Below, piece after piece: positions 5,740 to 22,648 of a stretch of 25,591 bases of DNA (positions are counted from its first letter, which is position 1; the number at the start of each line of letters is the position of its first letter). Origin of the DNA: Planctomycetota bacterium (GTDB lineage Bacteria > Planctomycetota > UBA1135 > GCA-002686595). The translations under genes were made by a program, and so were the position numbers. The stretch lies in assembly GCA_016872755.1 (NCBI GenBank), contig VGZE01000038.1, forward strand, positions 1 to 25,591, written 5' to 3'. A model generated the notes under the pieces. That model did no database searches, was not told the DNA's origin, and saw only the letters and a program-made list of their open reading frames with translations.

Positions 5740-7299
5740 ATGAAAATCGTTCTCTATCAGCCCCAGCAGACCAACAAGCGCGTGCACGGGCAGTCGAACC
5801 TCGACATGCTGCCGCTCGAGCTGATCCACATCGCCGGATACCCGGTGCAGGCCGGCCACGAGTGCGTGGTGATCGACGGCTCGCTGTACGAGCAGGCCGA
5901 CGCGCACCGGCGCGTGCTGGAGGCTTGCGACGGCGCCGCGATCTTCGCGACGACCGGCATCCTCGGCTGGATGGTCTCCGATGGCTATGTGTGCGCCGAG
6001 AAGGTGCGCGCGAAGCATCCGGGGATCAAGCGCGTGATCGGCGGCTGGTTCACCAGCGTGATGCCGCACCTGCACCTGAAGGACGGCGTGTTCGACGCGG
6101 CGGTGCTGGGTCAGGGCGAGCTGACCTTCCGCGACCTCGTCGATGCAATCGGCGCGGGCACTCCGCTCGAACAGGTCGACGGCCTCGCGCTGTGGCGCGA
6201 TGGTCAGCTCGTCAAGACCGGCCATCGCGCCGTGGTCGGCTTCGAGAAGCTGCCCGAGCCGGCCTGGCACCTGATCGACTTCAAGCCCTACCGCGAGGGC
6301 CAACTGCGGGCCGCGGCGCTCAACGACCACGTGCACATGCCCGGACCGCCGTGGATCGGCAAGAAGAGCCACTACGTCGGCATCACGTACTTCTCGAGCT
6401 TCGGCTGCCCCGAGCCGTGCTCGTTCTGCTGCAGCCCGTTTGTGACCGAGCGGCGCTGGAAGGCGAAGAGCGCCGACAAGATCCTGGACGACATCCAGAT
6501 GCTGCAGGAGCGCTGGGGGCCGATCGACGTCGTGCGCTTCCACGATGCGAACTTCGGCGTGATGGAGAAGCGCACGCGCGCGTTCGCCGAGGGGATCCTG
6601 AAGCGGAACATGAAGCTCGGCTGGAACGCGTTCATCGAGACCTATTCGATCAACGACTACCAGCTCGACACGCTCGACCTGTGCGCGCAATCGGGCTACT
6701 ACGTCGCCGAGATCGGCGCGGAGTCGGGCGACGCCGAGACGATGAAGCGCGTCGGCAAGCCGATCCGCGGCGACATGAACTACAACGCGGCGGTGCGGCT
6801 GCACGACCGCAACATCTGGGCGTCGATCACCTACATCATCGGCTTCCCCTACGAGTCCGAGGAGTCGATGGTCGCGACGCTCGACGAGGCGCGGCGCATC
6901 CAACTGCGCTGCCCGAACTCGTCGACGCACGTGCTGCCGTTCCGGCCGATCCCCGGCACCTCGATGTACGACCTGGCGCAGGAGCTCGGCTTCCAGGCGC
7001 CGGAGGACATCCACTTCTGGGGCGGCCAGACCGAGTACCACCTGCAGCAGACCTGGAGCGTGATCCCGCCGCGCATCGCGCGGCTGCGCAAGCTGCACAA
7101 CCACTACACGACGCTCTACAAGGGCCTCGCTCACCGCGAGCCGGGCATGTTCGAACGGGTCGCGCGCTGGCACCTCGAGTCCGACAACATGCGCTTCCCG
7201 GTCGACGCGAAGCTGTTCGCGCTGGTCGACAAGATGGAGAAGCGGCTGTTCAAGAAGAAGGAAGTCAAGCAGGACCTGGTCGACCAGGCCCTGGGATGA
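5740..7299 (+). CDS. B12-binding (class B) radical SAM enzyme, 519 aa
   Basis: N-terminal cobalamin-binding Rossmann-like segment (MKIVLYQPQQ...LELIHIAGY...GHECVVIDGS). Radical SAM cluster motif CxxxCxxC in FGCPEPCSFCCSP. TIM-barrel-like core and a C-terminal extension. The fold is that of class B radical SAM methyltransferases/cyclases; the substrate is unknown. Confidence 0.85.
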   Translation: MKIVLYQPQQTNKRVHGQSNLDMLPLELIHIAGYPVQAGHECVVIDGSLYEQADAHRRVLEACDGAAIFATTGILGWMVSDGYVCAEKVRAKHPGIKRVIGGWFTSVMPHLHLKDGVFDAAVLGQGELTFRDLVDAIGAGTPLEQVDGLALWRDGQLVKTGHRAVVGFEKLPEPAWHLIDFKPYREGQLRAAALNDHVHMPGPPWIGKKSHYVGITYFSSFGCPEPCSFCCSPFVTERRWKAKSADKILDDIQMLQERWGPIDVVRFHDANFGVMEKRTRAFAEGILKRNMKLGWNAFIETYSINDYQLDTLDLCAQSGYYVAEIGAESGDAETMKRVGKPIRGDMNYNAAVRLHDRNIWASITYIIGFPYESEESMVATLDEARRIQLRCPNSSTHVLPFRPIPGTSMYDLAQELGFQAPEDIHFWGGQTEYHLQQTWSVIPPRIARLRKLHNHYTTLYKGLAHREPGMFERVARWHLESDNMRFPVDAKLFALVDKMEKRLFKKKEVKQDLVDQALG

Positions 7300-9444: not shown

Positions 9445-12012
9445 TCAGCGAATCCCGAGCAGCTCGGGCCGCGCCGACAACTCACCGTACAGGCGCGCCG
9501 CGAGCAGTCGATGACCGTTCGCGTTGGCGAGGTGGTACATGTCCGAGATCATGATCTCGGACAGCGCGGGCTCCTGCACACCCTTGCGGATGTCGATGGT
9601 GAGGAAGCCGAGCCGCTCGGCAAGGGAGCGGACCTGGTCGATGCGCATGGTCATGCCGAACTCGACCGTCGCGTCGGCCTCGAACACCGGGACTTCGAGA
9701 TACACGGGGATCGCGCCCATTTCGACGCACGCGCCGTGAAAGCGGCGCAGGGCCCACATCTCGATGTCCTCGAGCACGCCGGCCACCCGGCGACGCACCT
9801 CGCCATCGTCCAGTTCCGGCGTGATGCCGGCCCGCCTGTAGGCGTCCTCGAGCTCGGGCATGAATTCCGGGCGTGTGCGCGCCACGGCGATCAGGTACTT
9901 GATGGTCGACCCGATGTGGTTCGACAGCAGCACGACGTCGGGCTCGTACGCGGCGACCTTGCGTTCGAGCTGGAACATGTGGTGGAACACCGAGTACGCG
10001 GGGACCGAGAAATTCAGGATCTCGTAGCGCAGGCCGTTGACCGAGGACTGCTTCTGGTTCAACTGGAGCTCGACCTGGCGCTCCCAGACCTCCGCGTCGG
10101 AGACCCCCATGCCCATCTCGACGCAAGTGCCGAGCAGCGCGATGCGCCAGGTCCGCGGAGGCTTGCGGAGCTCGTATTCGCGATCGCGCATGCCCGCGCT
10201 ATTGATCGTGTGCTGTTGCCCACCGATCTCGAGCCGCTGCGACGGCGGGAGCTCGAACTCGAGCAGGCCGGGCACGGGGCGCACGATCGCATTGCGCAGG
10301 AACGTCGGCACGTCCTCGGGATCGAACTGCGCGCCCGACCAGGCCCACACCACGCGGCGGTCGCGCTGGATCAGCCGGTCGTAGTACGCGATGCCGTCCG
10401 CATCGGCGTCCTGTCGCGCGCTCGATTCCACGCGCAGCGGAGTCAAGGCCGCCGCGATCGGCGCACCGAGAGCCGCGCTCGCGCGCTCCCAGCCGAGCAG
10501 CAGGAGCAGCGCACAGGCCGCGGCACGCGCCCACGCACCGGCGGATCCGGAGCGCGCCGCGGCGACGGCGCGCGCGAGCTCGGGCCGCAACTGCACCAGC
10601 ACGCCCGCGCCAATGAGCAGCGCGAGCACGCCTGTCAGCACGAACCAGTCCCGCAGCGGGCTCGCGGCGGCCTGCTTCAGCACGCCCGACCACTCGCTCA
10701 GTGATCGGCTCGACCACAGCGACCACAAGAGCGACGTGGTCGCGAACACGCCGAGCACGCGCAGCGCATGGCGCAACGCGGCGCCCAGGCGCGGCGGCGC
10801 CGCCGGCGCGCCCGGCGCCAGCACCGCGGGCCCGGCGGCGCGACGCGCCTCGGCCAGCACGCTCCACAGCGCCAGCAGCGCCGCGACGCCCCAGAACATG
10901 CCGTCCCAGGCCAGCGGCAGCCCGCCCTGCAGGAAGAACCACTGCAGCGCATGCAGCCACCACGTCGCGACGAACACGAGCGCCGTGGACGCCACCAGCG
11001 CGAAGGTCGTCCCCCGCATGCGCAGGCGCATGTAGGCCGGGTAGTAGACGAGCTTCTTCATGAACTCGGTCCAGTAGACGTTCGTGCGCCGCCAGCTGTC
11101 GCTGAAGCTGTGCGCCAGCAGGTACGCGTGGTTCGTCTCGGGGAGCTGGAAGCCGAACAGGTGCAGCATCCCGATCACCAGGTGGAAGTGCCCGGAGATG
11201 CGCAGGTAGAGCAGGTAGCTCGAGCAGACGAACATCAGCACGCCGCCCAGGTCGTGCACGTCGCCGGCGGCCGGGGTCAGGTACGCGTGGACGGCGCGGT
11301 AGGCCAGCAGGTGCAGGATCCCGCGCAGCATCCAGCGCAGCCCGCGCGCGTGGATCTCGCGCGCCGGGGCCGCGTAGTACGTGCGCTGGAAGGTCCGGTA
11401 GTCGACGACCGGAAAGAGCAGGAAGCAGACGTTCGGCAGCAGGAAGAAGTACGCGACGCGCATCCAGATCGACGCGGGCCGCGGCTGCGTGTGCTCGTCG
11501 TACAGGTAGATCGCGCCCCGGAACAGGAACATCGACGCGACCAGCGGTACCACCAGCGACTGCTCCGGCGCGCTGCCTCCGGGAAGGCGCGGCGCCGGGA
11601 TCCAACCGGCGCGCAGCGCGACGAGCAACGCGCCGCATGCGAGCAGGCTCGCGACGCGCCAGCGGATGTGCGCGCGCAGGTTGCACAGCAGGAACAGCAC
11701 TCCACCGAGCACGCCGACCGCCAGTGCATCGACCGGGCCGAGCACGCAGGCGAAGGCCACCGCGCTCAGCGCAACGAAGAACGGCAGCTTCCAGGCACCG
11801 GGCAGCCACGCGTGCACGCAGTAGCCGAGCGCGAGCACCGGCAACACGAGCGGCAGTCCGAGACCGGCCTCCAGTTCCAGCGCCGCGATGGCGCCGCACA
11901 GCATTCCCAGTTGCAGCGCATGCGCGACAAACGCCTTCCAGGCACGGGGTTCTGGTTCCGCATGCACGGGTACCGGCGCTGCATGCGAGGCAAGTGCGAG
12001 CCAACGCCGCAT
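9445..12012 (-). CDS. Fused MBOAT (AlgI/DltB/PatA-like membrane O-acyltransferase) plus C-terminal SGNH (AlgJ/AlgX/PatB/DltD-like) domain protein, 855 aa
   Basis: Start ATG (complement 12010-12012) gives MRRWLALASH. The N-terminal ~470 aa are polytopic and include the MBOAT signature region LPETNHAYLLAHSFSDSWRRTNVYWTEFMKKLVYYPAY (compare AlgI NFNSPY...[21 protein letters not shown]) and a conserved His in ISGHFHLV. The C-terminal ~380 aa have a GDS-like block (IALLGTCVEMGMGVSD) and a DxxH block (SDMYHLANANGHRLLAARLY) of SGNH hydrolases. The upstream 267 codons of the track ORF overlap the methyltransferase gene on the other strand and were trimmed. Confidence 0.75.
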   Translation of the reverse strand: MRRWLALASHAAPVPVHAEPEPRAWKAFVAHALQLGMLCGAIAALELEAGLGLPLVLPVLALGYCVHAWLPGAWKLPFFVALSAVAFACVLGPVDALAVGVLGGVLFLLCNLRAHIRWRVASLLACGALLVALRAGWIPAPRLPGGSAPEQSLVVPLVASMFLFRGAIYLYDEHTQPRPASIWMRVAYFFLLPNVCFLLFPVVDYRTFQRTYYAAPAREIHARGLRWMLRGILHLLAYRAVHAYLTPAAGDVHDLGGVLMFVCSSYLLYLRISGHFHLVIGMLHLFGFQLPETNHAYLLAHSFSDSWRRTNVYWTEFMKKLVYYPAYMRLRMRGTTFALVASTALVFVATWWLHALQWFFLQGGLPLAWDGMFWGVAALLALWSVLAEARRAAGPAVLAPGAPAAPPRLGAALRHALRVLGVFATTSLLWSLWSSRSLSEWSGVLKQAAASPLRDWFVLTGVLALLIGAGVLVQLRPELARAVAAARSGSAGAWARAAACALLLLLGWERASAALGAPIAAALTPLRVESSARQDADADGIAYYDRLIQRDRRVVWAWSGAQFDPEDVPTFLRNAIVRPVPGLLEFELPPSQRLEIGGQQHTINSAGMRDREYELRKPPRTWRIALLGTCVEMGMGVSDAEVWERQVELQLNQKQSSVNGLRYEILNFSVPAYSVFHHMFQLERKVAAYEPDVVLLSNHIGSTIKYLIAVARTRPEFMPELEDAYRRAGITPELDDGEVRRRVAGVLEDIEMWALRRFHGACVEMGAIPVYLEVPVFEADATVEFGMTMRIDQVRSLAERLGFLTIDIRKGVQEPALSEIMISDMYHLANANGHRLLAARLYGELSARPELLGIR

Positions 12013-12045
12013 GCAGGCGAAGATACCATTCCGGATCCTCGCCCC

Positions 12046-12825
12046 ATGGAACACGGCCACTACTCGGCGCTGGCCGGCGCCTATGCGGCGCACCGCGCCG
12101 GCTATGCCGACGCGGTCGCCGGGCGCGTGCTCGCCGCGGCCTGCGCCGCGGCGAACAAACCCGCGCAGGAGCTCGAGGTCGCCGACGTGGGCGCAGGCAC
12201 CGGAATCTGGTCGCGCGTGCTGGCACGCGCAGGCTGCCGGGTCCGCGCGGTCGAGCCGAACGACGCGATGCGCGAGGCCGGCGCTTCGGATCCCGCCAAC
12301 GGCTCGATTCGCTGGCACGGCGGTCGGGCCGAGGCCACCGAGCTCGCGGCCCGTTCCTGCGATCTCGTCACGATGGCATCGGCGTTCCACTGGACCGAGT
12401 TCGAGGCGGCGCTGGCGGAATTCGCGCGCGTGCTGCGCCCGCACGGCGTCTTCGCGGCACTGTGGAACACGCGCATCGTCGACGAGTCGCCGCTGCTCGC
12501 CGAGATCGAGGCGGAACTGCGCCGGCGCGTACCGCACTACGTGCCGCGCTCGTCGGGGCGCTCCGCCTTCTGCGACAGCCTGTCGGAGCGGCTGCGCGCC
12601 TGCGGCCGCTTCGCGCTCGTCGAGACCTGCGAGGGACGCCACGTCGAGGCGCAGAGTCGCGAGCGCTACCTCGGCATCTGGCGCTCGGTCAACGACGTGC
12701 GCGTGCAGGCCGGCGAACAGACCTTCGCCGACTTCCTCGAGTGGCTCGCGTGGCGCCTGCGCGATGTACCGCGGATCGAGGCCCCGTACCTGACGCGCTG
12801 CTGGATCGCGCACCTGTCGACCTAG
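12046..12825 (+). CDS. Class I SAM-dependent methyltransferase (Methyltransf_11/25-like), 259 aa
   Basis: Motif I LEVADVGAGTGIWSRVLA. An acidic residue after beta2 (RVRAVEPNDAM). Post-I DLVTMASAFHW and RVLRPHGVFAA. Divergent from the MBOAT-SGNH gene, with a 33-bp gap. Confidence 0.8.
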   Translation: MEHGHYSALAGAYAAHRAGYADAVAGRVLAAACAAANKPAQELEVADVGAGTGIWSRVLARAGCRVRAVEPNDAMREAGASDPANGSIRWHGGRAEATELAARSCDLVTMASAFHWTEFEAALAEFARVLRPHGVFAALWNTRIVDESPLLAEIEAELRRRVPHYVPRSSGRSAFCDSLSERLRACGRFALVETCEGRHVEAQSRERYLGIWRSVNDVRVQAGEQTFADFLEWLAWRLRDVPRIEAPYLTRCWIAHLST

Positions 12826-12899
12826 TCGGCGCGTGCCGCACGGGGTCTGATAGACTCGCTCGTGCGTCCCCTCGCGCGCTGGTTCGCGCCGGACGAACC

Positions 12900-13469
12900 A
12901 TGGATCCTGCCCACCGGACCGGCGCGCCGACCCAGCAAGGCACCGTGTACTGGCTCACAGGCCTCGCCGGGGTCGGGAAGTCGACGCTGGCCCGGCTGCT
13001 CGCCGCGCGCCTGCGCGCCGCGGGTCGCGCCGTCGTGCTGCTGGACGGCGACGAGCTGCGCGCGCGGCTGTTTCCGGAGGCCGGCTACGCGCGCGAAGAA
13101 CGTCTGATGCTGGCGCGGCGTTACGCCGGCCTGTGCGGCTTGGTGGCAGCGCAGGGTCCGGACGTCGTGTGCGCGACGATCTCGCTGTTTCCGGAGATCT
13201 GGAACGAGAATCGCCGGCTCCTGCCCGCCTATCGCGAGGTGCTGGTGCGCGCGCCGGCCGAGGAGCGCCGCCGGCGCCGGCCCGAGTTGCACGCCGGCAC
13301 GGCCGACTCGCGCGGACCGGTGGTGGGCGCGGAGCTGGCGGCGCCCGAACCGCACGAACCGCACGCCATCCTCGACAATGACGGCCGCCGATCGCCCGAG
13401 CAACTGATCGACGAGCTGTTGGCCGCATTCGCCGCGCGCGGCCCAGCCTGCGGCATGGGGCGGCCGTGA
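12900..13469 (+). CDS. cysC: Adenylyl-sulfate (APS) kinase-like P-loop kinase, 189 aa
   Basis: GTVYWLTGLAGVGKSTLARLL (Walker A in the APS kinase context GxxxWxTGLSGSGKST), followed by LLDGDELR (compare LDGDNVR), ISLFPEIWNENRRL, then YREVLVRAPAEERRRRRP and C-terminal EPHEPHAILDNDGRRSPEQLIDELL. Co-operonic with a sulfotransferase. Confidence 0.8.
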   Translation: MDPAHRTGAPTQQGTVYWLTGLAGVGKSTLARLLAARLRAAGRAVVLLDGDELRARLFPEAGYAREERLMLARRYAGLCGLVAAQGPDVVCATISLFPEIWNENRRLLPAYREVLVRAPAEERRRRRPELHAGTADSRGPVVGAELAAPEPHEPHAILDNDGRRSPEQLIDELLAAFAARGPACGMGRP

Positions 13470-15811
13470 GCCTCGCGCTCGAATTCCCGACCTGGACCAA
13501 GGCCGAGGCGCTCGAGCAGCTGGCGCCGCGGCTCGCCTGCGCGCGCGTGCTGCCGCAGGTTCGCACGGACGTCCGCGGCTGGCGCGCCGATCCCGACGCC
13601 GTGCTGGCGCTCGTCCGCGCGCGCGGCTGGCTCGACCAGCCGCTGATCGTGCGCAGTAGCGCGCGCGGCGAGGATCAGGCCGGTGCCTCGCTCGCGGGCC
13701 GTTTCCCGTCGATTCGCGACTGCCGCGGCGAGGCGGCGCTGCGCTCGGCCATCGAGCAGGTCGCCGCCGCCTTGCCGGCCGACGACGACCAGCTCTTCGT
13801 CCAACCCTGCCTGTGCGATGTGCGCTCCAGCGGCGTCGTGTTCACGCGCGATCCCGGCAGCGGCGGCCACTATGCGATCGTCGCCTACGACCAGCGCTCC
13901 GGACGCACCGACCTGATCACGTCCGGGCGCGCGGTCGAGCCGCGCACGTACCTGCACCACGAGAGCGCTCCGCCCGCGGCCGATCCCGAGCTGGTGCGCG
14001 TGCTCGAGCTGTCGCGCGAGTTGCAGCGCTTGCTCGAGTGCGCGGCGCTGGACATCGAGTATGCGTGTGTCGACGACGGCCTGCCCTACCTGCTGCAGGT
14101 GCGCGCGCTGGCCGCCGCGGCGGGCGCGCCAGCCGAGGCCGACGAAGAGGCCCGCGCGCTGCGCCGCGTGCAGCGGCGCGTCGAAGAACTCGGGGGCCCG
14201 CATCCGTACCTGCTCGGCGGTGCGCCGATCTTCGGCGCGATGCCGGATTGGAATCCGGCCGAGGTGCTGGGCGCGCGCCCGCGCCCGCTCGCGTTGTCCT
14301 TGTACCGCGAGCTGGTCACCGACGGGATCTGGGCCTACCAGCGGCGCAACTACGGCTATCGCGACTTGCGCAGCTTCCCGCTCGTGCATTCCTTTGCCGG
14401 GCTGCCCTACGTCGACGTGCGCGTGAGTTTCCACTCCTTCGTGCCGGCGGACCTCGGTGACGAGCTCGGCGGCCGGCTGGTCGACGAGTACGCGCACCGT
14501 CTGCTGGCCCGGCCGCCCGACCACGACAAGGTCGAGTTCTCGATCGTGGACTCGTGCGCGACGTTGGACCTGGAGCAGCGCCTGGCGCGCCTGCCGGCCG
14601 CGCGCTTCTCCCCCGCCGATCGCGCGCGCATCGCGGATTCGCTGCGCACGCTGACCAATCGCATCACGTCCGGTCCGCAGTGCTTGTTCCGGCTCGACCT
14701 CGACAAGATCGCGGCGCTCGAGCGCCGTCAGCAGGAATTCGCCGGCCGCGCCGCTGGGCTCGATCCGCTGTCGCGCGCGTACTGGCGCCTGGAGGACTGC
14801 AAGCGCTACGGAACGCTGCCCTTCGCCGGCATCGCGCGCGCGGCGTTCATCGCGCTGCAGATCCTCGATTCGCTGGTCGGCACGGGCCTGCTCGAGCGCG
14901 CGGAGCGCGAGCTCGTGCTGCACTCGTCCGACAGCGTGCGCGCCCGGATGGACCGCGACCTCGCGATGCTGCCGCGCGCGCAGTTCCTGGCGCGCTACGG
15001 CCACCTGCGGCCCGGCACCTACGAGGTCACGACGCCGCGCTACGACGAAGCGCCCGATGCGTATTTCGGTGCGCCGGGCGGCGGCGCCGCGCGTGCCGAG
15101 CCGCCGCACCGGCGTTTCGAACTCGACGCGCCGCGCAAGCGCCGCCTCGATGCCGAACTCGCCGCGCAGGGCCTCGCGCACGACGCGCGCTCGCTGTTCG
15201 AGTTCTTCTACGATGCGATCGAGGGGCGTGAGCACGCCAAGTTCGTCTTCACGCGCAGCCTCAGCGACGCGCTGGTCGATCTGGTCGAGGTGGCGCGCAA
15301 CGCCGGCTTCTCGCGCGACGACCTCAGCTACGCTGAATTCGATGCGCTGCGCGGCCTGCATTCGAGCTGCGACGATCCGCGAGCGGTGCTGGAGCGCTCG
15401 ATAGAGGCCGGTCGCGCGCGTCACGCCGTCACGCGCCGCCTGACGCTGCCCGCGCTGATCACCGCTCCGTCCGACGTGCTGGCCTTCCACCTGTCGCCGA
15501 GCGAGCCCAACTACGTCGGGCAGGCGCGCGTGGAGGGCCCGGCGCTCGCCGCAGCCTGTGCCGGGGAGAGCCTGCGCGGCGCCATCGTGCTGCTGCCGAA
15601 CGCCGACCCCGGACACGATTGGATCTTCGCGCACGGCGTGGCCGGCTTCGTCACGCAGTACGGCGGTTACAACTCGCACATGGCGGTGCGCGCCCTCGAA
15701 CTCGGCGTCCCCGCGGTGATCGGCGCCGGCGAGGAGCTGTATCGACGCTGGTCGCTGGCGCGACGGCTGCGCCTGGACTGCTTGAACCGCAAGGTCGAGG
15801 TGCTGGCATGA
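13466..15811 (+). CDS. PEP-utilizing enzyme, PEP synthase / pyruvate-phosphate dikinase-like phosphotransferase, 781 aa
   Basis: GTG start overlaps the cysC stop (GTGA). N-terminal PPDK_N-like nucleotide-binding region (VRSSARGEDQAGASLAGRFPSI compares with SSATAEDLPDASFAGQ). C-terminal phosphohistidine mobile domain (GGYNSHMAVRALELGVPAVIGAGE compares with GGRTSHAAIIARELGIPAVVG). There is no PEP mutase signature. Confidence 0.8.
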   Translation: MSLALEFPTWTKAEALEQLAPRLACARVLPQVRTDVRGWRADPDAVLALVRARGWLDQPLIVRSSARGEDQAGASLAGRFPSIRDCRGEAALRSAIEQVAAALPADDDQLFVQPCLCDVRSSGVVFTRDPGSGGHYAIVAYDQRSGRTDLITSGRAVEPRTYLHHESAPPAADPELVRVLELSRELQRLLECAALDIEYACVDDGLPYLLQVRALAAAAGAPAEADEEARALRRVQRRVEELGGPHPYLLGGAPIFGAMPDWNPAEVLGARPRPLALSLYRELVTDGIWAYQRRNYGYRDLRSFPLVHSFAGLPYVDVRVSFHSFVPADLGDELGGRLVDEYAHRLLARPPDHDKVEFSIVDSCATLDLEQRLARLPAARFSPADRARIADSLRTLTNRITSGPQCLFRLDLDKIAALERRQQEFAGRAAGLDPLSRAYWRLEDCKRYGTLPFAGIARAAFIALQILDSLVGTGLLERAERELVLHSSDSVRARMDRDLAMLPRAQFLARYGHLRPGTYEVTTPRYDEAPDAYFGAPGGGAARAEPPHRRFELDAPRKRRLDAELAAQGLAHDARSLFEFFYDAIEGREHAKFVFTRSLSDALVDLVEVARNAGFSRDDLSYAEFDALRGLHSSCDDPRAVLERSIEAGRARHAVTRRLTLPALITAPSDVLAFHLSPSEPNYVGQARVEGPALAAACAGESLRGAIVLLPNADPGHDWIFAHGVAGFVTQYGGYNSHMAVRALELGVPAVIGAGEELYRRWSLARRLRLDCLNRKVEVLA

Positions 15812-16425
15812 AGACCGTGCTCGTCTCGCAGCGCGTCGAGATCGCTGCTCCGAGCGGCGAGCGCCGCGACGCGCTGGCCCAGGACTGGCACGCTTTCCTG
15901 GCGCGCTGCGGATTGGCGCCGATCCTGGTCCCCAACCACGCGGGCAACGCGCGGGCCCTGCTCGGAGCGCCGCACTGCGGCGTGCTGCTGACCGGCGGCA
16001 ACGACCTCGCCAGCCTGGGCGGCGACGCGCCCGAGCGCGACGAGGTCGAGCGCTTGCTGGTCGAGCACGCACTCGCGGCGCGCCTGCCGGTGCTGGGCGT
16101 GTGCCGAGGAATGCAGTTCCTGGTCGATCGCTGCGGCGGCGCGCTGCAGCCCGTGGACGGTCACGTCACGCAGCAGCAGTGGATCGAAGTGGACGGCCGG
16201 CGCGAGCTGGTCAACAGCTACCATCGCTACGGCTGTCGCGCGGTGCCGCCCGAGCTCGAGGTCTGGGCGCGCGCGGACGACGGAGTGGTCGAGGCGGTGC
16301 GCCACCGCGCGCTGCCGCTGGTCGGGATCATGTGGCACCCCGAGCGCTTCGCGTCGCCGCGCGCAGCGGACGTCGAGCTGTTCCGCCGCGTGTTCGGCGC
16401 GCGCGGTCCGGAGGCGGCCCCATGA
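15808..16425 (+). CDS. Class I glutamine amidotransferase-like protein (peptidase C26 / PuuD gamma-glutamyl hydrolase family), 205 aa
   Basis: ATG overlaps the upstream stop (ATGA). Nucleophile elbow LPVLGVCRGMQFL. His/Glu block GIMWHPE. Size and motifs fit a stand-alone GATase-1/C26 hydrolase. Confidence 0.75.
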   Translation: MKTVLVSQRVEIAAPSGERRDALAQDWHAFLARCGLAPILVPNHAGNARALLGAPHCGVLLTGGNDLASLGGDAPERDEVERLLVEHALAARLPVLGVCRGMQFLVDRCGGALQPVDGHVTQQQWIEVDGRRELVNSYHRYGCRAVPPELEVWARADDGVVEAVRHRALPLVGIMWHPERFASPRAADVELFRRVFGARGPEAAP

Positions 16426-17156
16426 GGGCGCTGATTCTCGCCGCCGGCCGTGGCAGCCGGATGGGCGCGGCCACCGAGCACGGCCCCAAGGGCATGCTCG
16501 AAGTGCTGGGCCGACCGCTGCTGGCCTGGCAAATCGACGCGCTGCGCGCGGCGGGCGCGAGCGAGATCGCGATCGTGCGCGGCTACCGCGGCGAAGCCCT
16601 GCGCTTCGACGTGCGCTACTACGACAACCCGCGCTGGGAGAGCACGAACATGGTCGCGTCGCTCGGCTGCGCCGCCGAGTGGCTGCGCGCAGGCCCCTGC
16701 CTGGTTTCGTACGCGGATCTGGTCTATCCGCCCGAGGCGCCGCGCCGACTGGCCGAGACCGCCGCGCCGATCGCGCTCTTGTACGACGCGCACTGGCGGG
16801 AATTGTGGTCGCAGCGCTTCGCCGATCCGCTCGACGACGCGGAAGCGCTGCGCCTGGACGCGCGCGGGCGTGTGCTCGAGATCGGAGGCCGCCCGCGCGA
16901 CTACGCGCGCATCGAGGGACAGTACATGGGCCTGTTCCAGCTCACGCCCGAGGGCGCCGAACGGCTGTTCGCGCGCAGCGCCGAACTCGAGCCGGCCGCG
17001 CGCGACCGGCTCGACATGACGACGCTCTTCGCGCGCTGCGTGCGCGCGGGCGACGAGCTGCACGCCGTGCGCTACGACGGCTGGTGGTGCGAGATCGACC
17101 AGCCCTCCGACCTCGCGCTGGCCGAGCGGATCGCGGCCCAGGGGACGGCCCGTTGA
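16422..17156 (+). CDS. MobA-like nucleotidyltransferase (NTP_transf_3; sugar/phospho-alcohol nucleotidylyltransferase, LicC/CofC-like), 244 aa
   Basis: ATG overlaps the upstream stop (ATGA). N-terminal MRALILAAGRGSRMG...KGMLEVLGRPLLAWQIDAL is the G-x-G-x-R NTP-binding loop of MobA/LicC/GlmU-type nucleotidyltransferases. Confidence 0.75.
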   Translation: MRALILAAGRGSRMGAATEHGPKGMLEVLGRPLLAWQIDALRAAGASEIAIVRGYRGEALRFDVRYYDNPRWESTNMVASLGCAAEWLRAGPCLVSYADLVYPPEAPRRLAETAAPIALLYDAHWRELWSQRFADPLDDAEALRLDARGRVLEIGGRPRDYARIEGQYMGLFQLTPEGAERLFARSAELEPAARDRLDMTTLFARCVRAGDELHAVRYDGWWCEIDQPSDLALAERIAAQGTAR

Positions 17157-18004
17157 GACCCGAGAATCGCTCGCGCCTCGGACCACACGACGTCGTGCTG
17201 GCCGCGCACCCGGGCTCGGGTTCGAGCTGGATCGGCACGCTGCTCGTCGAACTCGGCCTGTTCTACGCATCGGGCCACGAGGAGCGGCTGCTCGACTCGA
17301 GCAGCCAGCGCAGCGAGCCCTGGATCGAGGCGGGAACGGCTCCGGCAGCCGGGCTCGCGCGCCCGCGCCTGGCGCGCGCGGAACGCGCCCGGCACCTGCC
17401 GTCGCTGCACGAGCGCGACGCGCGCCACCCGAGCTTTCGCGAGCCGGTCCGCGTCGTGTTGAGCAACGACAGCGCGCTGGGCTGGAAGTGCGAGCGGCCG
17501 GTCGTGCTGCTGGTGCGCGACGGCCGCGATGCGCTCCTGTCGCTGTACCAGCACCTGGTGGGGTTCAGCGGTCTGCAGGCGTCCTTCGCCGAGTACCTGG
17601 CCGGCGGCGGCGGCGCCTGGCCGCCGCCCGCGCACAGTTGGGCGGTCGCCAACCTGAGCTGGCTCGACGCGACGCCGCGCGAGCGCCTGCTCGTGCTGAC
17701 CTTCGAAAGCTGTCGGGCCGATCCGCTCGCGCGCTTTCGCGAGCTGACCGGGTTCCTCGGCGCGCCGCGCAGCGACGCGGAACTCGAGCGCGCGATCGCG
17801 GCGAGCAGCTACGACGCGATGCGCCAGGCGGAGGAGCGCGCCCTCGGCCCCGAGGCCGCCGCCGCGAACGCTCCGCGCTTCATGCGCCGGGGCCGCATCG
17901 GCGAATGGCGCGAGGTCTACGACGCCGCGTTGCTGACGCGCTTTTCGGGCCTGCCGCGCCGCGCGCTCGAGCGCTTCGGCTACCCGACCGCCGAGATCCC
18001 CTGA
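17153..18004 (+). CDS. PAPS-dependent sulfotransferase, 283 aa
   Basis: TTG start overlaps the upstream stop (TTGA); a GTG about 45 nt downstream is an alternative. 5'-PSB loop HPGSGSSWIGTLL (compare PKSGTTW). 3'-PB motif LVRDGRDALLSLYQH (compare RNPRDVxVSxYHF). C-terminal FESCRADPLARFRELTGFLG (compare YEDLKxDPxxEIxKIxxFLG). Confidence 0.75.
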   Translation: MRPENRSRLGPHDVVLAAHPGSGSSWIGTLLVELGLFYASGHEERLLDSSSQRSEPWIEAGTAPAAGLARPRLARAERARHLPSLHERDARHPSFREPVRVVLSNDSALGWKCERPVVLLVRDGRDALLSLYQHLVGFSGLQASFAEYLAGGGGAWPPPAHSWAVANLSWLDATPRERLLVLTFESCRADPLARFRELTGFLGAPRSDAELERAIAASSYDAMRQAEERALGPEAAAANAPRFMRRGRIGEWREVYDAALLTRFSGLPRRALERFGYPTAEIP

Positions 18005-19941
18005 GTCGCGCCGGCGAACGCCTCGACGACGGTGCAGCGCGGCTCGATCAACGCGAGCTCCTGCACCGATTGCGTGCAGATCCAGGTGTGCAGGAAGGCG
18101 GTCTGCTTCGGCATCAGGAACACCTGTCCGGTGCGGTGATCGACCCGGATCAGGTGATCGCCGGGCGCGAGCAGGTCGGGCTCGAGCGGCGCCCCGATGC
18201 GCAGCGCGTGCACGAGTCGCGGGAAATCGTACGGCGAGCGCAGCTTGAGCTCGCGGTGGCGCAGTTCGACCAGCGTGAGCGCTTCGAGCGGCACGCCCAG
18301 CTCGGTCTTGGTCTGCATGAACAGATAGGGTCGGCAGGCGAGGTCGTACTCGACCGCGGCGCGCAGCAGCGCACCGTGCGGACCCGCAAACCACTCGGGG
18401 CGCGTTGCCACGTACGCGACCAGCAACCGATCGAACTCGGCGCGCTGCGCGTGCATCGCCGCGTCGGCCAGCTCGCCGCGCCACATGTACTTGACCATGT
18501 CCTCGAAGCACTCGAGCTGATTGCGCCAGCGCTCCGCGAAAGGCCCGCTCGCCTGCGTGTCCATCCAGCGCGAGAACTGGTCCACCTCGTCGCGGAAGCG
18601 CGCGATGCCGAGCCGGTCGAGCAGCTGCAGCGTCGCATACAGTCCGCGACAATCGTTCAGCAGGAACAGTGCGATCGCGAAGCGCAATCCGGCGATGTAG
18701 TCAGGGAACGGAACCTCGCGCGTGGAGACGACGATCTCCCCGCCCGTCGCCGGGTCGTCCTCGGGCAGCAGCGTGACGCCGTATTCCTCGGTGTGCTCGC
18801 GATAGCCGGTGTTGTTCAGCCACATCAGCGGGTAGACCAGGAATCCCTGAGCGCCCCTGCGCAGCAGGTCGTCGATGCCGTCCTTGAAGCTGTCGAGCGT
18901 CTCGCCGGGCATCGGCCACAGGAGCTCGACCATCGACGCCCGACGGTGCTCGTTCAGGTGGCGCTGGATGCGCGTGTAGGGTTCGCGCTCGAGTCCCGTG
19001 CGGCGCGCACGTTCCAGCACTTCCTTGCTCATCGACTGCAGCGAGAACATGTGCCGCGAGAGCATGCCGGCGTCGGCGACGAGATTCGAGATCTGCTCTA
19101 CGCGCTCGGGCTTCACCTTCGAGCTGTTGAACAGGATGCGCTTGAGATTGCCGTACTTGCGCGAGACCGCGACGATCTGCTCGGCGATCTCGAGGTCGCG
19201 CGGCAGGATGCCGAAGTTCGCGTCGGTCAGCGACATCACGCGGATGCCGCGCTTGCCGATCCACTCGAGCTCCTCGCGCAGCCGCCCCAGGTCCTGCTGG
19301 TAGATCTTCTGTCCGATGGCGCCGCCCCAGTAGCAGAACTCGCACGCGAATGGGCAGCCCCGATTGGTCTCGAACAGCGCGATCTCGATGTGGCCCACCT
19401 CGTCGAAGACGCCGCTCAGCCACGGCGACGGCAGCTCGGACAGGTCCTGCACGCGCGGCGGCCCCGGCGTCGTGACGAACTGGCCGTCGCGCGCGAAGGT
19501 CAGCCCGCCCACGCGCTGCCAATCGGGCCTCGACTCGCTGAGTTCGAGCAGCACGTCGCGGAACGGCCGCTCGCCCTCCGAGTTGCACACGGCCACGTTC
19601 TCCCAGCCGGTCTGCACGAAACGCGGAGCGACGTTCATCACTTCGACGCCGCCGAGCAGGAAGCGCGTGCGCGGCAGCAACCCGCGCAACGTCGGGAGCA
19701 GCCGCCGCACGATGCCGGCGTTCCACGTGTACACGCTGAACGCGACGAGATCGGGGTTGCGCGCCACCAGATCGCGGATCACGTACGAGGCCTTGACCGT
19801 GTTTTGCTGCCGGTACAGCTCGACGTTCCAGGTCGCGCGCACTTGTGGGTCCGCCATCGCGAACGCCTTCAAGTAGCCGCCGACGAGCGGCGACAGTCGG
19901 GCGAGCCCGTCGAGGTGCACGATGACCGCGTTGCGCTTCAT
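17980..19941 (-). CDS. B12-binding (class B) radical SAM enzyme, paralog 2, 653 aa
   Basis: Start ATG (complement 19939-19941) gives MKRNAVIVHLDG, preceded by GAAGG. B12-binding N-terminus. CxxxCxxC in RGCPFACEFCYWG. Long C-terminal extension. Same architecture as the 5740-7299 gene. The upstream 89 codons of the track ORF were trimmed. Confidence 0.85.
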   Translation of the reverse strand: MKRNAVIVHLDGLARLSPLVGGYLKAFAMADPQVRATWNVELYRQQNTVKASYVIRDLVARNPDLVAFSVYTWNAGIVRRLLPTLRGLLPRTRFLLGGVEVMNVAPRFVQTGWENVAVCNSEGERPFRDVLLELSESRPDWQRVGGLTFARDGQFVTTPGPPRVQDLSELPSPWLSGVFDEVGHIEIALFETNRGCPFACEFCYWGGAIGQKIYQQDLGRLREELEWIGKRGIRVMSLTDANFGILPRDLEIAEQIVAVSRKYGNLKRILFNSSKVKPERVEQISNLVADAGMLSRHMFSLQSMSKEVLERARRTGLEREPYTRIQRHLNEHRRASMVELLWPMPGETLDSFKDGIDDLLRRGAQGFLVYPLMWLNNTGYREHTEEYGVTLLPEDDPATGGEIVVSTREVPFPDYIAGLRFAIALFLLNDCRGLYATLQLLDRLGIARFRDEVDQFSRWMDTQASGPFAERWRNQLECFEDMVKYMWRGELADAAMHAQRAEFDRLLVAYVATRPEWFAGPHGALLRAAVEYDLACRPYLFMQTKTELGVPLEALTLVELRHRELKLRSPYDFPRLVHALRIGAPLEPDLLAPGDHLIRVDHRTGQVFLMPKQTAFLHTWICTQSVQELALIEPRCTVVEAFAGATQGISAVG

Positions 19942-20071
19942 GATCCGGCCTTCAGGTTCCGCGACGCCTCTCGCCGGCAGCGGCGAGCAGCCAGCCGAGC
20001 GGGGCAGCGCGACACTGTCTACTCTACCGCCGAATGCTAGGATCGGCGCGCGGGCTGCAGCCGGCCCGGTC

Positions 20072-20329
20072 ATGGAATCGCCCGAGATCGCCGCTCGCGT
20101 GCGCCAGATCCTGCTCGATGGGGTCTTGCGCGGCAGCAACCCCGCCCTGCTGCAGGACTCGACACCGCTGCTTTCCGGCGGCGTGCTCGACTCGGTGCGC
20201 ATGGTCACGCTGATCTCCGACCTCGAGCGCGCCTTCGGCGTCAGCTTCGAGGCCTTCGAAATGAGCGTCGACTACCTCGACTCGATCGCGATCATCGCGC
20301 GCACGATCCGCGACAAGAAGACGGGGTGA
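20072..20329 (+). CDS. Acyl carrier protein (phosphopantetheine-binding), 85 aa
   Basis: Phosphopantetheine attachment context GGVLDSVRMVTLISDLERAFGV (DSx Ser with a flanking helix II). Size fits an ACP. Directly upstream (4-nt gap) of the acyl-AMP ligase. Divergent from radical SAM paralog 2 across a 130-bp region. Confidence 0.75.
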   Translation: MESPEIAARVRQILLDGVLRGSNPALLQDSTPLLSGGVLDSVRMVTLISDLERAFGVSFEAFEMSVDYLDSIAIIARTIRDKKTG

Positions 20330-20333
20330 TCCG

Positions 20334-22055
20334 TTGGCCGAGACGCTGCAAGGCCGGCTGCGCGCGCGACTCGACGAGGCTCCCGCCGCACGCGCACTGG
20401 CCTGCATCGACGCGCGTGGGGCCGCGATCTGGTGGACGCGCGCAGAGCTGCATGCGGAGGCCGCGCGCTGCGCCGCGCGGATGGGCGAACTGGGACTGCG
20501 CGCGGGCGACGTCGTCGTGCTCGTGTGCGTCGATCCGCGCGAGGCCGCGCTCGGGGCCCTCGGGGCCTGGCGGGCCGGGGCGATCCCGCTGCTGGTCGCG
20601 CCCCCGACGATCCAGGGCCTGAACTCGAGCCTCGCTACGATCCTGCGCCACGCGTTGGCGCGCACCGAGGCGCGCCTGCTGGTGCTGACGCGCGCGGCCG
20701 CGCCGCGTGCCGACGAGCTCGCGGCCGCGCTGCCCGGACTGCGCATCGAGCGCGGCTTCGAAACCCTGCTCGCGCCCGCGCAGCCGGCCATCTCCGTCGA
20801 GCCGGGACTGATCGAACCACGCGACGCCGGCACCGCCGCGGCGCTGCAGCTCAGCTCCGGCACGACGCGCCTGCCGCGCATCGCGCGCTGGAGCCACGCG
20901 CGCCTGCTCTGCGCGCTCGACGGCATGGCGCAGGGAATGAACCTCGCGAGCGACGACGTGTACGCGAATTGGACGCCGCTCTACCACGACATGGGACTGG
21001 TCAACAACCTGCTCACGTGCCTGGTGCGCGGCATCCCGCTCGCGCTCCTGTCTCCGCTAGACGTCGTGCGCAGCCCGTCGCTGTGGTTGCGCGCGCTCGA
21101 ATCGACCGGCGCGACCCAGACCTGGTCGCCGAACTTCGGGTACGCGCTGGCGGCCGAGCGCTGCCGCGACGAGGAGCTCGCGGGCCTCGATCTCTCGCGC
21201 GTGCGCGGTTTCTGGAACGCCGCCGAGCGCGTGCACGTCTCGACCTTCGAGCGCTTCCTGGCGCGCTTCGCGCGCCACGGGGTGCGGCGGGACGCCTGCC
21301 GCACCAACTTCGGCTGCGTCGAGACGATCGGCGGCGCGACCTTCAGCGCGCGCTCGGCCGCGCTCGCCACCGAGCGACTGGACCTCGACGTGCTGCGCGA
21401 GCAGCGCGTCGCGCGCGCCGCTGACCCCACGACGCGGCGCGCGCAGACCTACGTCGGCTGCGGGCGCGTGCACCCGCTGCTCGAGTTGGCGGTCTTCGAT
21501 CCCGCGGGACGCGCGCTGCCCGACGGCCATGTCGGGACGCTCGGGTTCCGTGGCCGGGCGCGCTTCGACGGCTACCTCGGCGACGAGGAGGCCGCGCACA
21601 ACGTGCTGCGCGACGAGTGGGTGCTGCCCGGCGACGAAGGCTACCTGCGCGACGGCGAGCTGTACTGGACCGGGCGGCGCGACGAGCGCATCAACCTGCA
21701 GGGCAAGAAGCTCGATCCGAGCGAGCTCGAGCCGGTGCTGCTGGCCGTCGAGGGCCTGCGCAAGGGCTGTTTCTGCGCCTTCGGCGCCGAGGACGAGACG
21801 CGCGGCACGCAGGTGCTCGTCGTCGCCAGCGAGGTTGAGCCGGAGGCCGAGGCGGACCTGGCCGGGCTCGCGGCGCGCGCGCGCGCGGCGCTGTCGCGCG
21901 AGCTCGGGCTGGCGGTCGAGGAATTGCTGCTCGTGCGCAAGGGCACGCTGGCGAAGACGTCCAGCGGCAAGCGGCGGCATCTCCATTTCCGCGACCTCTT
22001 CGCGCGCGGCGAGCTGGAGGCGCTGCACGTGTCGCGCGCGGGGAGCCTTGGATAG
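20334..22055 (+). CDS. Fatty acyl-AMP ligase (FAAL) / AMP-dependent synthetase-ligase, 573 aa
   Basis: TTG start 4 nt after the ACP stop. AMP-binding motif A3 LQLSSGTTRLPRIA (compare SSGTTGxPKG). A5-like block NWTPLYHDMGL. A8-like PGDEGYLRDGELYWTGRRDERINLQGKKLDPSELE. The N-terminus and ACP pairing are typical of FAAL-type loaders rather than CoA ligases. Confidence 0.8.
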   Translation: MAETLQGRLRARLDEAPAARALACIDARGAAIWWTRAELHAEAARCAARMGELGLRAGDVVVLVCVDPREAALGALGAWRAGAIPLLVAPPTIQGLNSSLATILRHALARTEARLLVLTRAAAPRADELAAALPGLRIERGFETLLAPAQPAISVEPGLIEPRDAGTAAALQLSSGTTRLPRIARWSHARLLCALDGMAQGMNLASDDVYANWTPLYHDMGLVNNLLTCLVRGIPLALLSPLDVVRSPSLWLRALESTGATQTWSPNFGYALAAERCRDEELAGLDLSRVRGFWNAAERVHVSTFERFLARFARHGVRRDACRTNFGCVETIGGATFSARSAALATERLDLDVLREQRVARAADPTTRRAQTYVGCGRVHPLLELAVFDPAGRALPDGHVGTLGFRGRARFDGYLGDEEAAHNVLRDEWVLPGDEGYLRDGELYWTGRRDERINLQGKKLDPSELEPVLLAVEGLRKGCFCAFGAEDETRGTQVLVVASEVEPEAEADLAGLAARARAALSRELGLAVEELLLVRKGTLAKTSSGKRRHLHFRDLFARGELEALHVSRAGSLG

Positions 22056-22099: not shown

Positions 22100-22648
22100 A
22101 TGCTCCGAGCGAGGAGGATTCCACTGGCCGACTCGAGAGATGCGCATCCCTGGGCTTCACGTCTGGCTGCCGAACACAGCTGGCTGCGCCGCAGGGCTCA
22201 CCGACTGATCGGCCGCGGACTGCGTCGCAGCGCCGATTCGACGGACCTCGCGCACGCGACGCTCGCCAAGGCGCTCGAGAAACCGCCTTCGAGGACGCCG
22301 ACGAATCGCCCCGAGCTGCGCGCCTGGTTGGATCGCGTGCTGTCACGCTTGGCGGCGCGCCTGGGAGGCAAGCCGGGTCCGGAGGCGGTGGCGTCGAGCG
22401 CGCTCGAGCGCCTGCCACGCACGGCGGATGGCGTCAGCGAGCGACGGCGCGAGATCTCGGAGGAACTCCTGAGATCGCTGGACGCGCTGACGCCGCGCCA
22501 GCGGCTCGTGATCCAACTGCGCCTGTGGGAGAAGCTCTCGTTCGCGCAGGTTGCGGTCCGGCTCGGGACGAGCGAGGGCAATGCGCGCGTGCTGTTCCAC
22601 CGGGCGATCGAGGCGCTGCAGCGACTCGAGGGTCGCAATGGGCGCTGA
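22100..22648 (+). CDS. ECF-type RNA polymerase sigma factor (sigma-70 family group 4), 182 aa
   Basis: GGAG 5-6 nt upstream of the ATG. Region 2-like ADSTDLAHATLAKALEK and ELRAWLDRVLSRLAARLG. Region 4 HTH LTPRQRLVIQLRLWEKLSFAQVAVRLGTSEGNARVLFHRAIEALQRL. Confidence 0.65.
   Translation: MLRARRIPLADSRDAHPWASRLAAEHSWLRRRAHRLIGRGLRRSADSTDLAHATLAKALEKPPSRTPTNRPELRAWLDRVLSRLAARLGGKPGPEAVASSALERLPRTADGVSERRREISEELLRSLDALTPRQRLVIQLRLWEKLSFAQVAVRLGTSEGNARVLFHRAIEALQRLEGRNGR

Follow-up and report, generated by a model that had tools for sequence, protein, structure and literature searches.

A compact operon of overlapping genes as a probable phosphoramidate donor pathway in an uncultured Planctomycetota bacterium

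Contig VGZE01000038.1 of a Planctomycetota bacterium (assembly GCA_016872755.1; 25,591 nt, GC content 70%; the whole contig is hereafter called the window) carries five forward-strand genes joined by four 4-nt overlaps (positions 12900-18004). Judged from protein families and gene order, the operon is likely to make phosphoramidate in an activated donor form, following the route that leads to O-methyl phosphoramidate (MeOPN) in Campylobacter jejuni, and the five genes together with a methyltransferase gene 74 nt upstream form a six-gene cassette that probably not only makes but also uses this donor. The initial annotation had assigned the five proteins to one pathway because of the overlaps; this is borne out by co-clustering in nearly all of 85 related loci and by fusion of the first two genes in 45 of them, but the sulfur or phosphoenolpyruvate (PEP) metabolism suggested by its names (cysC, PEP-utilizing enzyme, sulfotransferase) is not, and the annotations "cysC" and "sulfotransferase" at such loci are probably wrong. 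The five genes are indeed joined as it described, but the functional unit is larger, since it takes in the methyltransferase and a conserved surrounding cluster. The donor cassette occurs widely; its kinase usually forms a fusion with the glutamine kinase, and the cassette is repeatedly paired with proteins of sulfotransferase fold that lack the sulfate-specific Lys. The genes of the cassette are as follows (APS, adenosine 5'-phosphosulfate; PPDK, pyruvate phosphate dikinase; GATase, glutamine amidotransferase; CDP and CTP, cytidine di- and triphosphate; SAM, S-adenosylmethionine).

12046-12825 (+), class I SAM-dependent methyltransferase, candidate phosphoramidate O-methylase (Methyltransf_11, 63.5 bits)
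12900-13469 (+), APS-kinase-fold kinase ("cysC" of the initial annotation), proposed cytidine diphosphoramidate 3'-kinase, Cj1415-like (PRK05541)
13466-15811 (+), glutamine kinase-type PEP-utilizer/PPDK-like enzyme of 781 aa, Cj1418-like (NF004508/PRK05849)
15808-16425 (+), Peptidase C26/class I GATase-fold hydrolase, proposed gamma-glutamyl-CDP-amidate hydrolase, Cj1417-like (NF045546)
16422-17156 (+), MobA-like nucleotidyltransferase (NTase), proposed CTP:phosphoglutamine cytidylyltransferase, Cj1416-like (NTP_transf_3, 77 bits)
17153-18004 (+), "PGSG"-type protein of sulfotransferase fold, proposed phosphoramidate transferase (Sulfotransfer_1, 60.8 bits)

The proposed donor pathway

In C. 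jejuni, the joint product of Cj1415 to Cj1418 is CDP-phosphoramidate 3'-phosphate, which probably serves as the donor of MeOPN (PMC11800397, PMC6429109). By homology, the 781-aa PEP-utilizer-type enzyme of the window would use ATP to phosphorylate L-glutamine on its amide nitrogen (step 1), the NTase would couple the phosphoglutamine to CTP to give CDP-L-glutamine (step 2), the C26 hydrolase would take off glutamate to leave cytidine diphosphoramidate (step 3), and the APS-kinase-like protein would phosphorylate the 3'-hydroxyl to give 3'-phospho-CDP-amidate, a look-alike of 3'-phosphoadenosine 5'-phosphosulfate (PAPS) (step 4). Related loci were read for comparison. From species-representative genomes the best 80 were taken (43-55% protein identity; Acidobacteriota, Alpha-, Beta- and Gammaproteobacteria, Planctomycetota, Gemmatimonadota, Verrucomicrobiota, and others), and metagenomic contexts were added to give 85 loci. 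The four enzymes and the methyltransferase (12046-17156 in the window) co-cluster in 73-85 of the 85 loci, across many phyla.

The 781-aa protein matched NF004508/PRK05849 with 820.9 bits (cut-off, 501) over residues 6-780 and contains the PEP-utilizer and PPDK_N domains (PF00391 and PF01326); H738 in its swivel-domain motif NSHM was invariant among 19 homologues, and homologues of 52-53% identity are labelled "glutamine kinase" by the Joint Genome Institute (JGI). The kinase encoded by the first gene passed the PRK05541 model (130.6 bits; cut-off, 127) and failed the canonical apsK model TIGR00455 (72.2 bits; cut-off, 138.7); its Pfam APS_kinase score was 72.8 bits, and its best matches in the PDB were genuine APS kinases. 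The APS-kinase-like domain forms the N-terminal part of a fused protein of approximately 970 aa, followed by the glutamine kinase, in the majority of the 120 best homologues listed (P0003, P0004, P0008, and P0010 among them) and in the 45 loci mentioned above, and this fusion is the strongest internal evidence that the kinase belongs to the glutamine kinase pathway. Matches to an unfused glutamine kinase of approximately 780 aa were also common among the best homologues.

For the hydrolase, NF045546 was the top NCBIfam match (109 bits, full length), the Pfam score for Peptidase_C26 was 89.5 bits, and in seven hydrolase homologues from other loci NF045546 was the sole strong match (91-165 bits). 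The NTase directly follows the hydrolase in 81 of the 85 loci, and this conserved position is the basis of its functional assignment. The methyltransferase gene is separated from the kinase gene by 74 nt, and a homologue lies beside the cassette in 73 of the 85 loci; from this neighbourhood it is taken to belong to the cassette. Its product would O-methylate the phosphoramidate group (step 6), in keeping with the O-methyl part of MeOPN.

Three points weigh against this assignment of the pathway. The NF045546 score of the window hydrolase is below the equivalog cut-off (250), no specific curated cytidylyltransferase model for the NTase was present in the libraries searched, and the likeness to Cj1415-Cj1418 was drawn by family models, gene order, and published functions and not from the C. 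jejuni sequences.

Common to the window and the C. jejuni MeOPN genes are the clustering of an APS-kinase-like kinase, a glutamine kinase, a C26 hydrolase, an NTase, and a class I methyltransferase, and the order 1418-1417-1416. The differences are several. The C. jejuni set also has the methyltransferases Cj1419/1420 and the transferases Cj1421/1422. In the window the kinase gene stands first (in most relatives as part of a fusion), the genes do not belong to a capsule (kps) locus, and the candidate transferase has the sulfotransferase fold. Adjacent genes encode a fatty-acyl-AMP ligase, a carrier protein, a protein with membrane-bound O-acyltransferase (MBOAT) and SGNH domains, and a B12 radical-SAM enzyme, and the host is an uncultured bacterium of 70% GC with metagenome-assembled genomes of Planctomycetota as its nearest named relatives. 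The pathway itself has a known homologue (Cj1415-1418); new are the uncultured, probably planctomycete-like organism, the gene order and kinase fusion, the non-capsule locus, a transferase candidate with an altered active site, and the lipid/acylation-type neighbourhood.

At least 597 species genomes, among them Acidobacteriota, Planctomycetota, and Proteobacteria, contained relatives of the cassette. Reviews treat MeOPN and the glutamine kinase as specific to Campylobacter (including PMC6429109), one preprint describes a similar cluster in archaeal Borgs, and the MeOPN decoration pathway was still named as future work in a paper of 2025.

The sulfotransferase-fold protein

The AlphaFold model of the protein encoded by 17153-18004 (predicted local distance difference test, 83.4; predicted template modelling score, 0.85) was searched with Foldseek, and the top matches were all sulfotransferases bound to PAPS or to its desulfated form PAP (E ~1e-10, TM ~0.6). 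The motifs for the 3'-phosphate are kept (RDGRDALLS and RRGxxGEW; R122-x7-S130 and R245-x-G247 were invariant). The loop that canonically reads PKSGTTW is HPGSGSSW in this protein, and by alignment to SULT1C2, oestrogen sulfotransferase (EST), and Teg12 the catalytic Lys, which is the residue contacting the sulfate-bridging oxygen, is replaced by Gly (G21, present in at least 90% of 20 aligned family sequences). A profile search of 1.84 billion representatives (E<=1e-30) gave 157 relatives; among the 24 that were read, most had "YPGSG", kept the KTH motif, and lacked the Lys.

The close family of the window protein gave 29 matches among 5.8 billion proteins, and cassette genes were present in all eight family contexts that were read. 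The gene directly follows the NTase gene in five of them (the window, L081, L082, L083, and L087), the cassette lies 2-10 kb away in two (L084 and L085), and the remaining one (L086, a 15-kb contig) has a partial cassette with the NTase/APS-kinase-like pair only. A PGSG relative of 39% identity directly follows the cassette in L088/L089, more distant Sulfotransfer_1-like genes adjoin it in 2 of the 80 genome loci (L047 and L071), and a Sulfotransfer_3 gene (family c2; 40 bits; hhalign against the window family, 88.8%) flanks it in 16 of the 80. In addition, a CysQ-like bisphosphate nucleotidase was found in or beside the cassette in six loci, and inside the operon in three.

L037, 9890-10705; L057, 9827-10678; L067, 6267-7010; also L012, L013, and L079: CysQ-like nucleotidases (Inositol_P family)

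Such an enzyme fits, by analogy, the removal of a 3',5'-bisphosphate nucleotide by-product.

Since the sulfotransferase fold and the 3'-phosphate motifs are kept, the Lys is lost, the gene is a neighbour of the cassette, and an ATP sulfurylase is missing from the window, we propose as step 5 that the sulfotransferase-fold protein would bind the donor through the retained 3'-phosphate motifs and move the phosphoramidate to an acceptor hydroxyl with release of cytidine 3',5'-bisphosphate; we rate the chance of this transfer a little below even. The acceptor would probably be a lipid or glycan handled by the module of fatty-acyl-AMP ligase, carrier protein, and MBOAT-SGNH protein. The transfer of MeOPN to an acceptor is a step that is not yet reconstituted, and a literature search for diphosphoramidate linked with sulfotransferase found no paper in the collection searched; the present proposal yields a testable hypothesis for the missing transferase chemistry. 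A broader scheme is more speculative: PGSG-type proteins in general might be phosphoramidate transferases that use 3'-phospho-CDP-amidate in the way PAPS is used, and with the kinase (and the CysQ-like nucleotidases) they might constitute a widespread PAPS-like system, perhaps serving phosphonates as well (L086, see below), which in the window would be tied to the module of fatty-acyl-AMP ligase, carrier protein, MBOAT-SGNH protein, and B12 radical-SAM enzyme and would build a new envelope lipid or acylated glycan containing a P-N bond.

Several observations speak against step 5. The canonical catalytic His (of KTH) is Asn, Gly, or Thr in the clade of the window protein, and the catalytic mechanism is thereby in doubt; His19, specific to this clade (AHPGSG, compared with SYPGSG elsewhere), may make up for this loss. 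In 40 of the 85 cassette loci no sulfotransferase-like gene was present within 7 kb, so other types of transferase must exist, and the known MeOPN transferases of C. jejuni are Cj1421/Cj1422. These facts leave some room for a different role, in which the sulfotransferase-like protein would not be the group transferase but a non-catalytic nucleotide-binding subunit, or would act on a carrier-bound acyl chain with another donor, the phosphoramidate being transferred by another protein. The loss of both the Lys and the His and the 40 loci just mentioned are in line with such a role, as is the situation in L084-L086, where the gene is linked more tightly to the carrier protein and acyl-AMP ligase genes than to the cassette. 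However, the nucleotide-binding motifs and many other residues, including those of the extreme N-terminus, are strongly conserved throughout the family, and the family consistently co-occurs with the APS-kinase-like gene, whose only known role is the addition of the 3'-phosphate that sulfotransferase folds recognise. We regard the non-transferase role as a minor possibility and retain phosphoramidate transfer as the proposal for this protein.

Some further sequences of this kind were noted. The commonest family flanking the cassette (c1; 25 of the 80 genome loci, e.g., L045:11621-12559(-)) consists of proteins of ~304 aa with no Pfam match; its motifs GLFGTGRRY and VYRHPLDSLLT recall the nucleotide-binding loops of sulfotransferases, and its hhalign match to the window family was weak (16% probability). 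The 964-aa protein P0271 combines a PGSG-type domain with a second, canonical sulfotransferase-like domain (PRSGST), a repeat region, and a methyltransferase-like C-terminus. In L091:2479-10102 (Logan SRR14492177), a distant PGSG gene is located near hydrolase-like, NTase-like, and methyltransferase-like genes and a GARS_A-type ATP-grasp gene; neither a glutamine kinase nor an APS-kinase-like gene was found on this 13-kb contig, and the ATP-grasp protein may represent an alternative first step.

Gene junctions and start codons

The four 4-nt overlaps reported by the initial annotation were matched exactly when the sequence was read directly.

Junction 1, 13466-13469 (+), GTGA; the kinase stop codon and the GTG start codon of the glutamine kinase gene overlap
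Junction 2, 15808-15811 (+), ATGA; glutamine kinase to C26 hydrolase
Junction 3, 16422-16425 (+), ATGA; hydrolase to NTase
Junction 4, 17153-17156 (+), TTGA; NTase to sulfotransferase-like gene

All five forward frames (12900-13469, 13466-15811, 15808-16425, 16422-17156, and 17153-18004) are backed by the GC content at third codon positions (0.84-0.96), and the overlapping starts were compared with the N-termini of homologues. GTG 13466 is the earliest possible start of its open reading frame (ORF), and the use of the next in-frame start would cost the invariant K12, E14, and L16 of the glutamine kinase. ATG 15808 and ATG 16422 have an offset of 0 to residue 1 of the homologues in most loci. 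The start at TTG 17153, which had been put forward together with a downstream GTG as the competing site, encodes MRPENR, in which M1, N5, and R6 are invariant or nearly so among 20 homologues (32-92% identity), and the equivalent start codon is GTG in L081 and L082 and ATG in L083. This conservation supports the overlapping TTG as the start of the sulfotransferase-like gene. The downstream start at GTG 17195 was rejected; it would leave out MRPENR and the beta-strand that leads into the nucleotide-binding loop. Purine-rich motifs resembling the Shine-Dalgarno (SD) sequence (GGGG, GAGG, GGAGG, and AGGGGA) lie 7-13 nt 5' of the four overlapping starts.

For the related loci, N-termini were projected from BLAST alignments, and the gene starts used below are those inferred in this way. 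As to whether the junctions recur in orthologous loci, the closest relative (P0002, a 4.9-kb JGI contig; 70% amino acid identity in the large enzyme) has the same five genes and all four 4-nt overlaps by its gene coordinates, and the overlaps prevail in the majority of related loci. The junction from glutamine kinase to hydrolase is a 4-nt overlap in 65 of 74 loci when the start nearest to the projected N-terminus is taken (68 of 74 when overlapping starts up to 12 codons away also count), hydrolase and NTase overlap (-1, -4, or -13) in 57 of 66 loci, and the junction from NTase to sulfotransferase-like gene is -4 in four of four loci; such a -4 junction was seen in L081 (GTGA), L082 (GTGA), L083 (ATGA), and the P0002 contig. 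In 45 loci an in-frame fusion takes the place of the first junction, which is -4 in four of the nine cases in which the two genes are adjacent and unfused. As a control, the junction from NTase to methyltransferase in the same loci overlaps in 4-5 of 35. Because conservation is so far above that of the control, the overlaps appear to be selected features and not accidents, and we infer from them that the five genes constitute a compact, translationally coupled operon. Stoichiometric co-expression, which had also been read from the overlaps, does not follow from them.

Overlaps of the ATGA and GTGA type are the commonest junctions in bacterial operons, and the architecture of five overlapping genes is in itself ordinary operon architecture. 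The overlaps could therefore be by-products that arise from the tight packing of operons in a genome of high GC and from what conserved protein ends allow, with no special role in coupling or in protein ratios. Consistent with this, the exact form is not obligatory in the related loci (-1, -13, and small positive gaps occur), and the first junction is often fused or interrupted by an inserted gene. We nevertheless consider this explanation rather unlikely, given that the overlap between glutamine kinase and hydrolase is kept in 65-68 of the 74 loci across phyla at 43-55% identity, that the control junction rarely overlaps, and that SD-like motifs are present at all four starts. The unusually strong conservation of the overlaps, taken here as selected features, makes the cassette a handy test case for translational coupling.

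Neither an intrinsic terminator nor a sigma-70-like promoter was detected in 11700-20400 by a consensus scan, which is weak at 70% GC, and a search of the operon region for riboswitches and tRNAs found none.

An improbable sulfation reading, gene fusion and the surrounding cluster

The names given in the initial annotation correspond to a sulfation locus, in which PAPS would be made by a true APS kinase (first gene) and used by a PAPS-dependent sulfotransferase (last gene), so that the product would be sulfated, alone or alongside a phosphoramidate from the middle genes. The APS_kinase and Sulfotransfer_1 scores (72.8 and 60.8 bits) and the retained 3'-phosphate motifs agree with such a locus, as do the top matches in the PDB by sequence and by fold, which were genuine APS kinases and sulfotransferases with bound PAP(S), and PAPS may be supplied by housekeeping genes elsewhere in the genome, a point that also counts against the phosphoramidate reading. 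On the other hand, the kinase falls far short of the apsK model and in most relatives forms one protein with the glutamine kinase, the phosphosulfate-binding loop has Gly for Lys throughout the family, this clade has Asn for the His, and the sulfotransferase-like family adjoins phosphoramidate or phosphonate genes. No ATP sulfurylase (CysDN or Sat) and no sulfate transporter or permease were found among the genes of the window, and a genuine sulfation cluster of C. jejuni has cysD, cysN, a permease, cysC, and a sulfotransferase. A sulfated product is thus improbable, and sulfate assimilation or sulfation was rejected as the primary reading on the grounds of the apsK failure, the loss of the Lys, and the contrast with the real sulfation cluster.

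The phosphoramidate cassette nevertheless resembles the PAPS system (CysC, PAPS-dependent sulfotransferases, and CysQ) in its three folds and in the order of 3'-phosphorylation and transfer, the CysQ-like nucleotidase being present in six related loci. It differs in that the proposed group is phosphoramidate on CDP and not sulfate on AMP, in that the window lacks ATP sulfurylase, and in that the window kinase fails the apsK model and the window transferase has Gly for the catalytic Lys.

As for the first junction, the kinase and glutamine kinase genes are split with a 4-nt overlap in the window, in the P0002 contig, and in L082, which amounts to a fusion/fission polymorphism. A frameshift (an assembly or sequencing error, or a recent pseudogenising mutation) at GTGA 13466-13469 in a single fused gene, to which the ~970-aa fusion of most relatives and the opening of both frames in 13382-13469 would lend themselves, is very improbable and was rejected, since the same split, the 4-nt overlap, and the N-terminus MSLxxEFxxWTKAE occur independently in two relatives (the P0002 contig and L082), unfused genes are common, and the linker is as long as in the fused homologue P0003.

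The cassette is surrounded by the following genes.

9445-11904 (-) by the JGI call, or from ATG 12015, large membrane protein of 819-856 aa with an MBOAT (DltB/AlgI)-like N-terminal domain and an SGNH/GDSL-like C-terminal domain (annotation of homologues)
17980-19941 (-), B12-binding radical-SAM methyltransferase (KedN5 family, 303 bits; cut-off, 700; weak match to the PhpK family)
20072-20329 (+), small acyl/peptidyl carrier protein of 85 aa with a GGVLDS motif (PP-binding, 19.2 bits; cut-off, 20.8)
20334-22055 (+), fatty acyl-AMP ligase-type adenylating enzyme (AMP-binding, 139 bits; PRK09192, 263 bits; cut-off, 600)

Among the 281 homologues of the large membrane protein, several are named "DltB (MBOAT superfamily)" or "AlgI" by JGI and many carry PF13472; the MBOAT assignment was taken from these source annotations, as neither Pfam (E<=10) nor the PDB profile search gave an MBOAT match. 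The gene adjoins the cassette or the sulfotransferase-like gene in L082-L086. The top NCBIfam match of the carrier protein was ACP_for_OlsHI, an acyl carrier protein for ornithine lipid (71.9 bits; cut-off, 130). The carrier protein gene accompanies the sulfotransferase-like gene in L081-L086 and is always followed by the ligase gene in the related loci. In L084 and L086 the sulfotransferase-like gene overlaps with the genes of the carrier protein and ligase, and the acceptor might thus be of the acyl or lipid type (an acyl group held by the carrier, a lipid, or a glycan bearing acyl groups).

This module shares with the Dlt (DltA/DltC/DltB/DltD) and AlgI/AlgJ MBOAT systems an adenylating enzyme, a small GGVLDS carrier, and a membrane protein that has DltB/AlgI-annotated homologues and an SGNH-like C-terminal domain. 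Unlike in Dlt, adenylation would fall to a fatty-acyl-AMP ligase-type enzyme and not to DltA, and the kinship of the membrane protein to MBOAT is invisible to Pfam and PDB profiles. To our knowledge, a link of a Dlt/AlgI-type module to a phosphoramidate operon has not been described before. The motif FQLPETNHAYLLAHSFSDSWRRTNVYW in the MBOAT-like protein of 9445-12015 resembles the AlgI/DltB signature; by eye, WRRTN has Asn (N312, invariant among six homologues) at the position of the catalytic His of MBOAT proteins. The divergent MBOAT-like and methyltransferase genes (11904-12046) are 30-141 nt apart depending on the start (39 nt in L082), which implies a very compact divergent control region.

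The start of the B12 radical-SAM gene was set at ATG 19941 from the N-termini of homologues, and the gene occupies the same position in L081-L083. Its 3' end (-) converges with that of the sulfotransferase-like gene (+) and overlaps it by 25 nt (17980-18004; 4 nt in L082 and L083), which leaves no space for a terminator between the two genes.

In L086:1-15072 (Logan DRR538840), the module of sulfotransferase-like, carrier protein, ligase, and MBOAT-like genes lies beside a PEP mutase-cytidylyltransferase fusion, a thiamine pyrophosphate-dependent decarboxylase, an iron-containing alcohol dehydrogenase, a methyltransferase, and the NTase and APS-kinase-like pair; no glutamine kinase was seen on this 15-kb contig. 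The locus may be a phosphonate-donor variant in which the transferase family is paired with a phosphonate donor. We take its PEP mutase-cytidylyltransferase, together with the B12 radical-SAM protein of the window, to resemble the CMP (cytidine monophosphate)-phosphonate chemistry of fosfomycin (Fom1, a PEP mutase/cytidylyltransferase, and Fom3, a B12 radical-SAM enzyme). Unlike that chemistry, the window has no PEP mutase, and the likeness lies mainly in L086; it suggests only that this family of transferases may work with more than one phosphorus-containing donor.

A second B12-binding radical-SAM protein (519 aa) is encoded at 5740-7299 (+), approximately 5 kb upstream of the cluster. Downstream of the ligase gene, a gene resembling an extracytoplasmic function (ECF)-type sigma factor (22100-22648 (+)) is followed by an ORF for a Ser/Thr protein kinase (22551-24968 (+)); these ORFs overlap by ~100 nt, and the kinase probably starts further downstream than listed.

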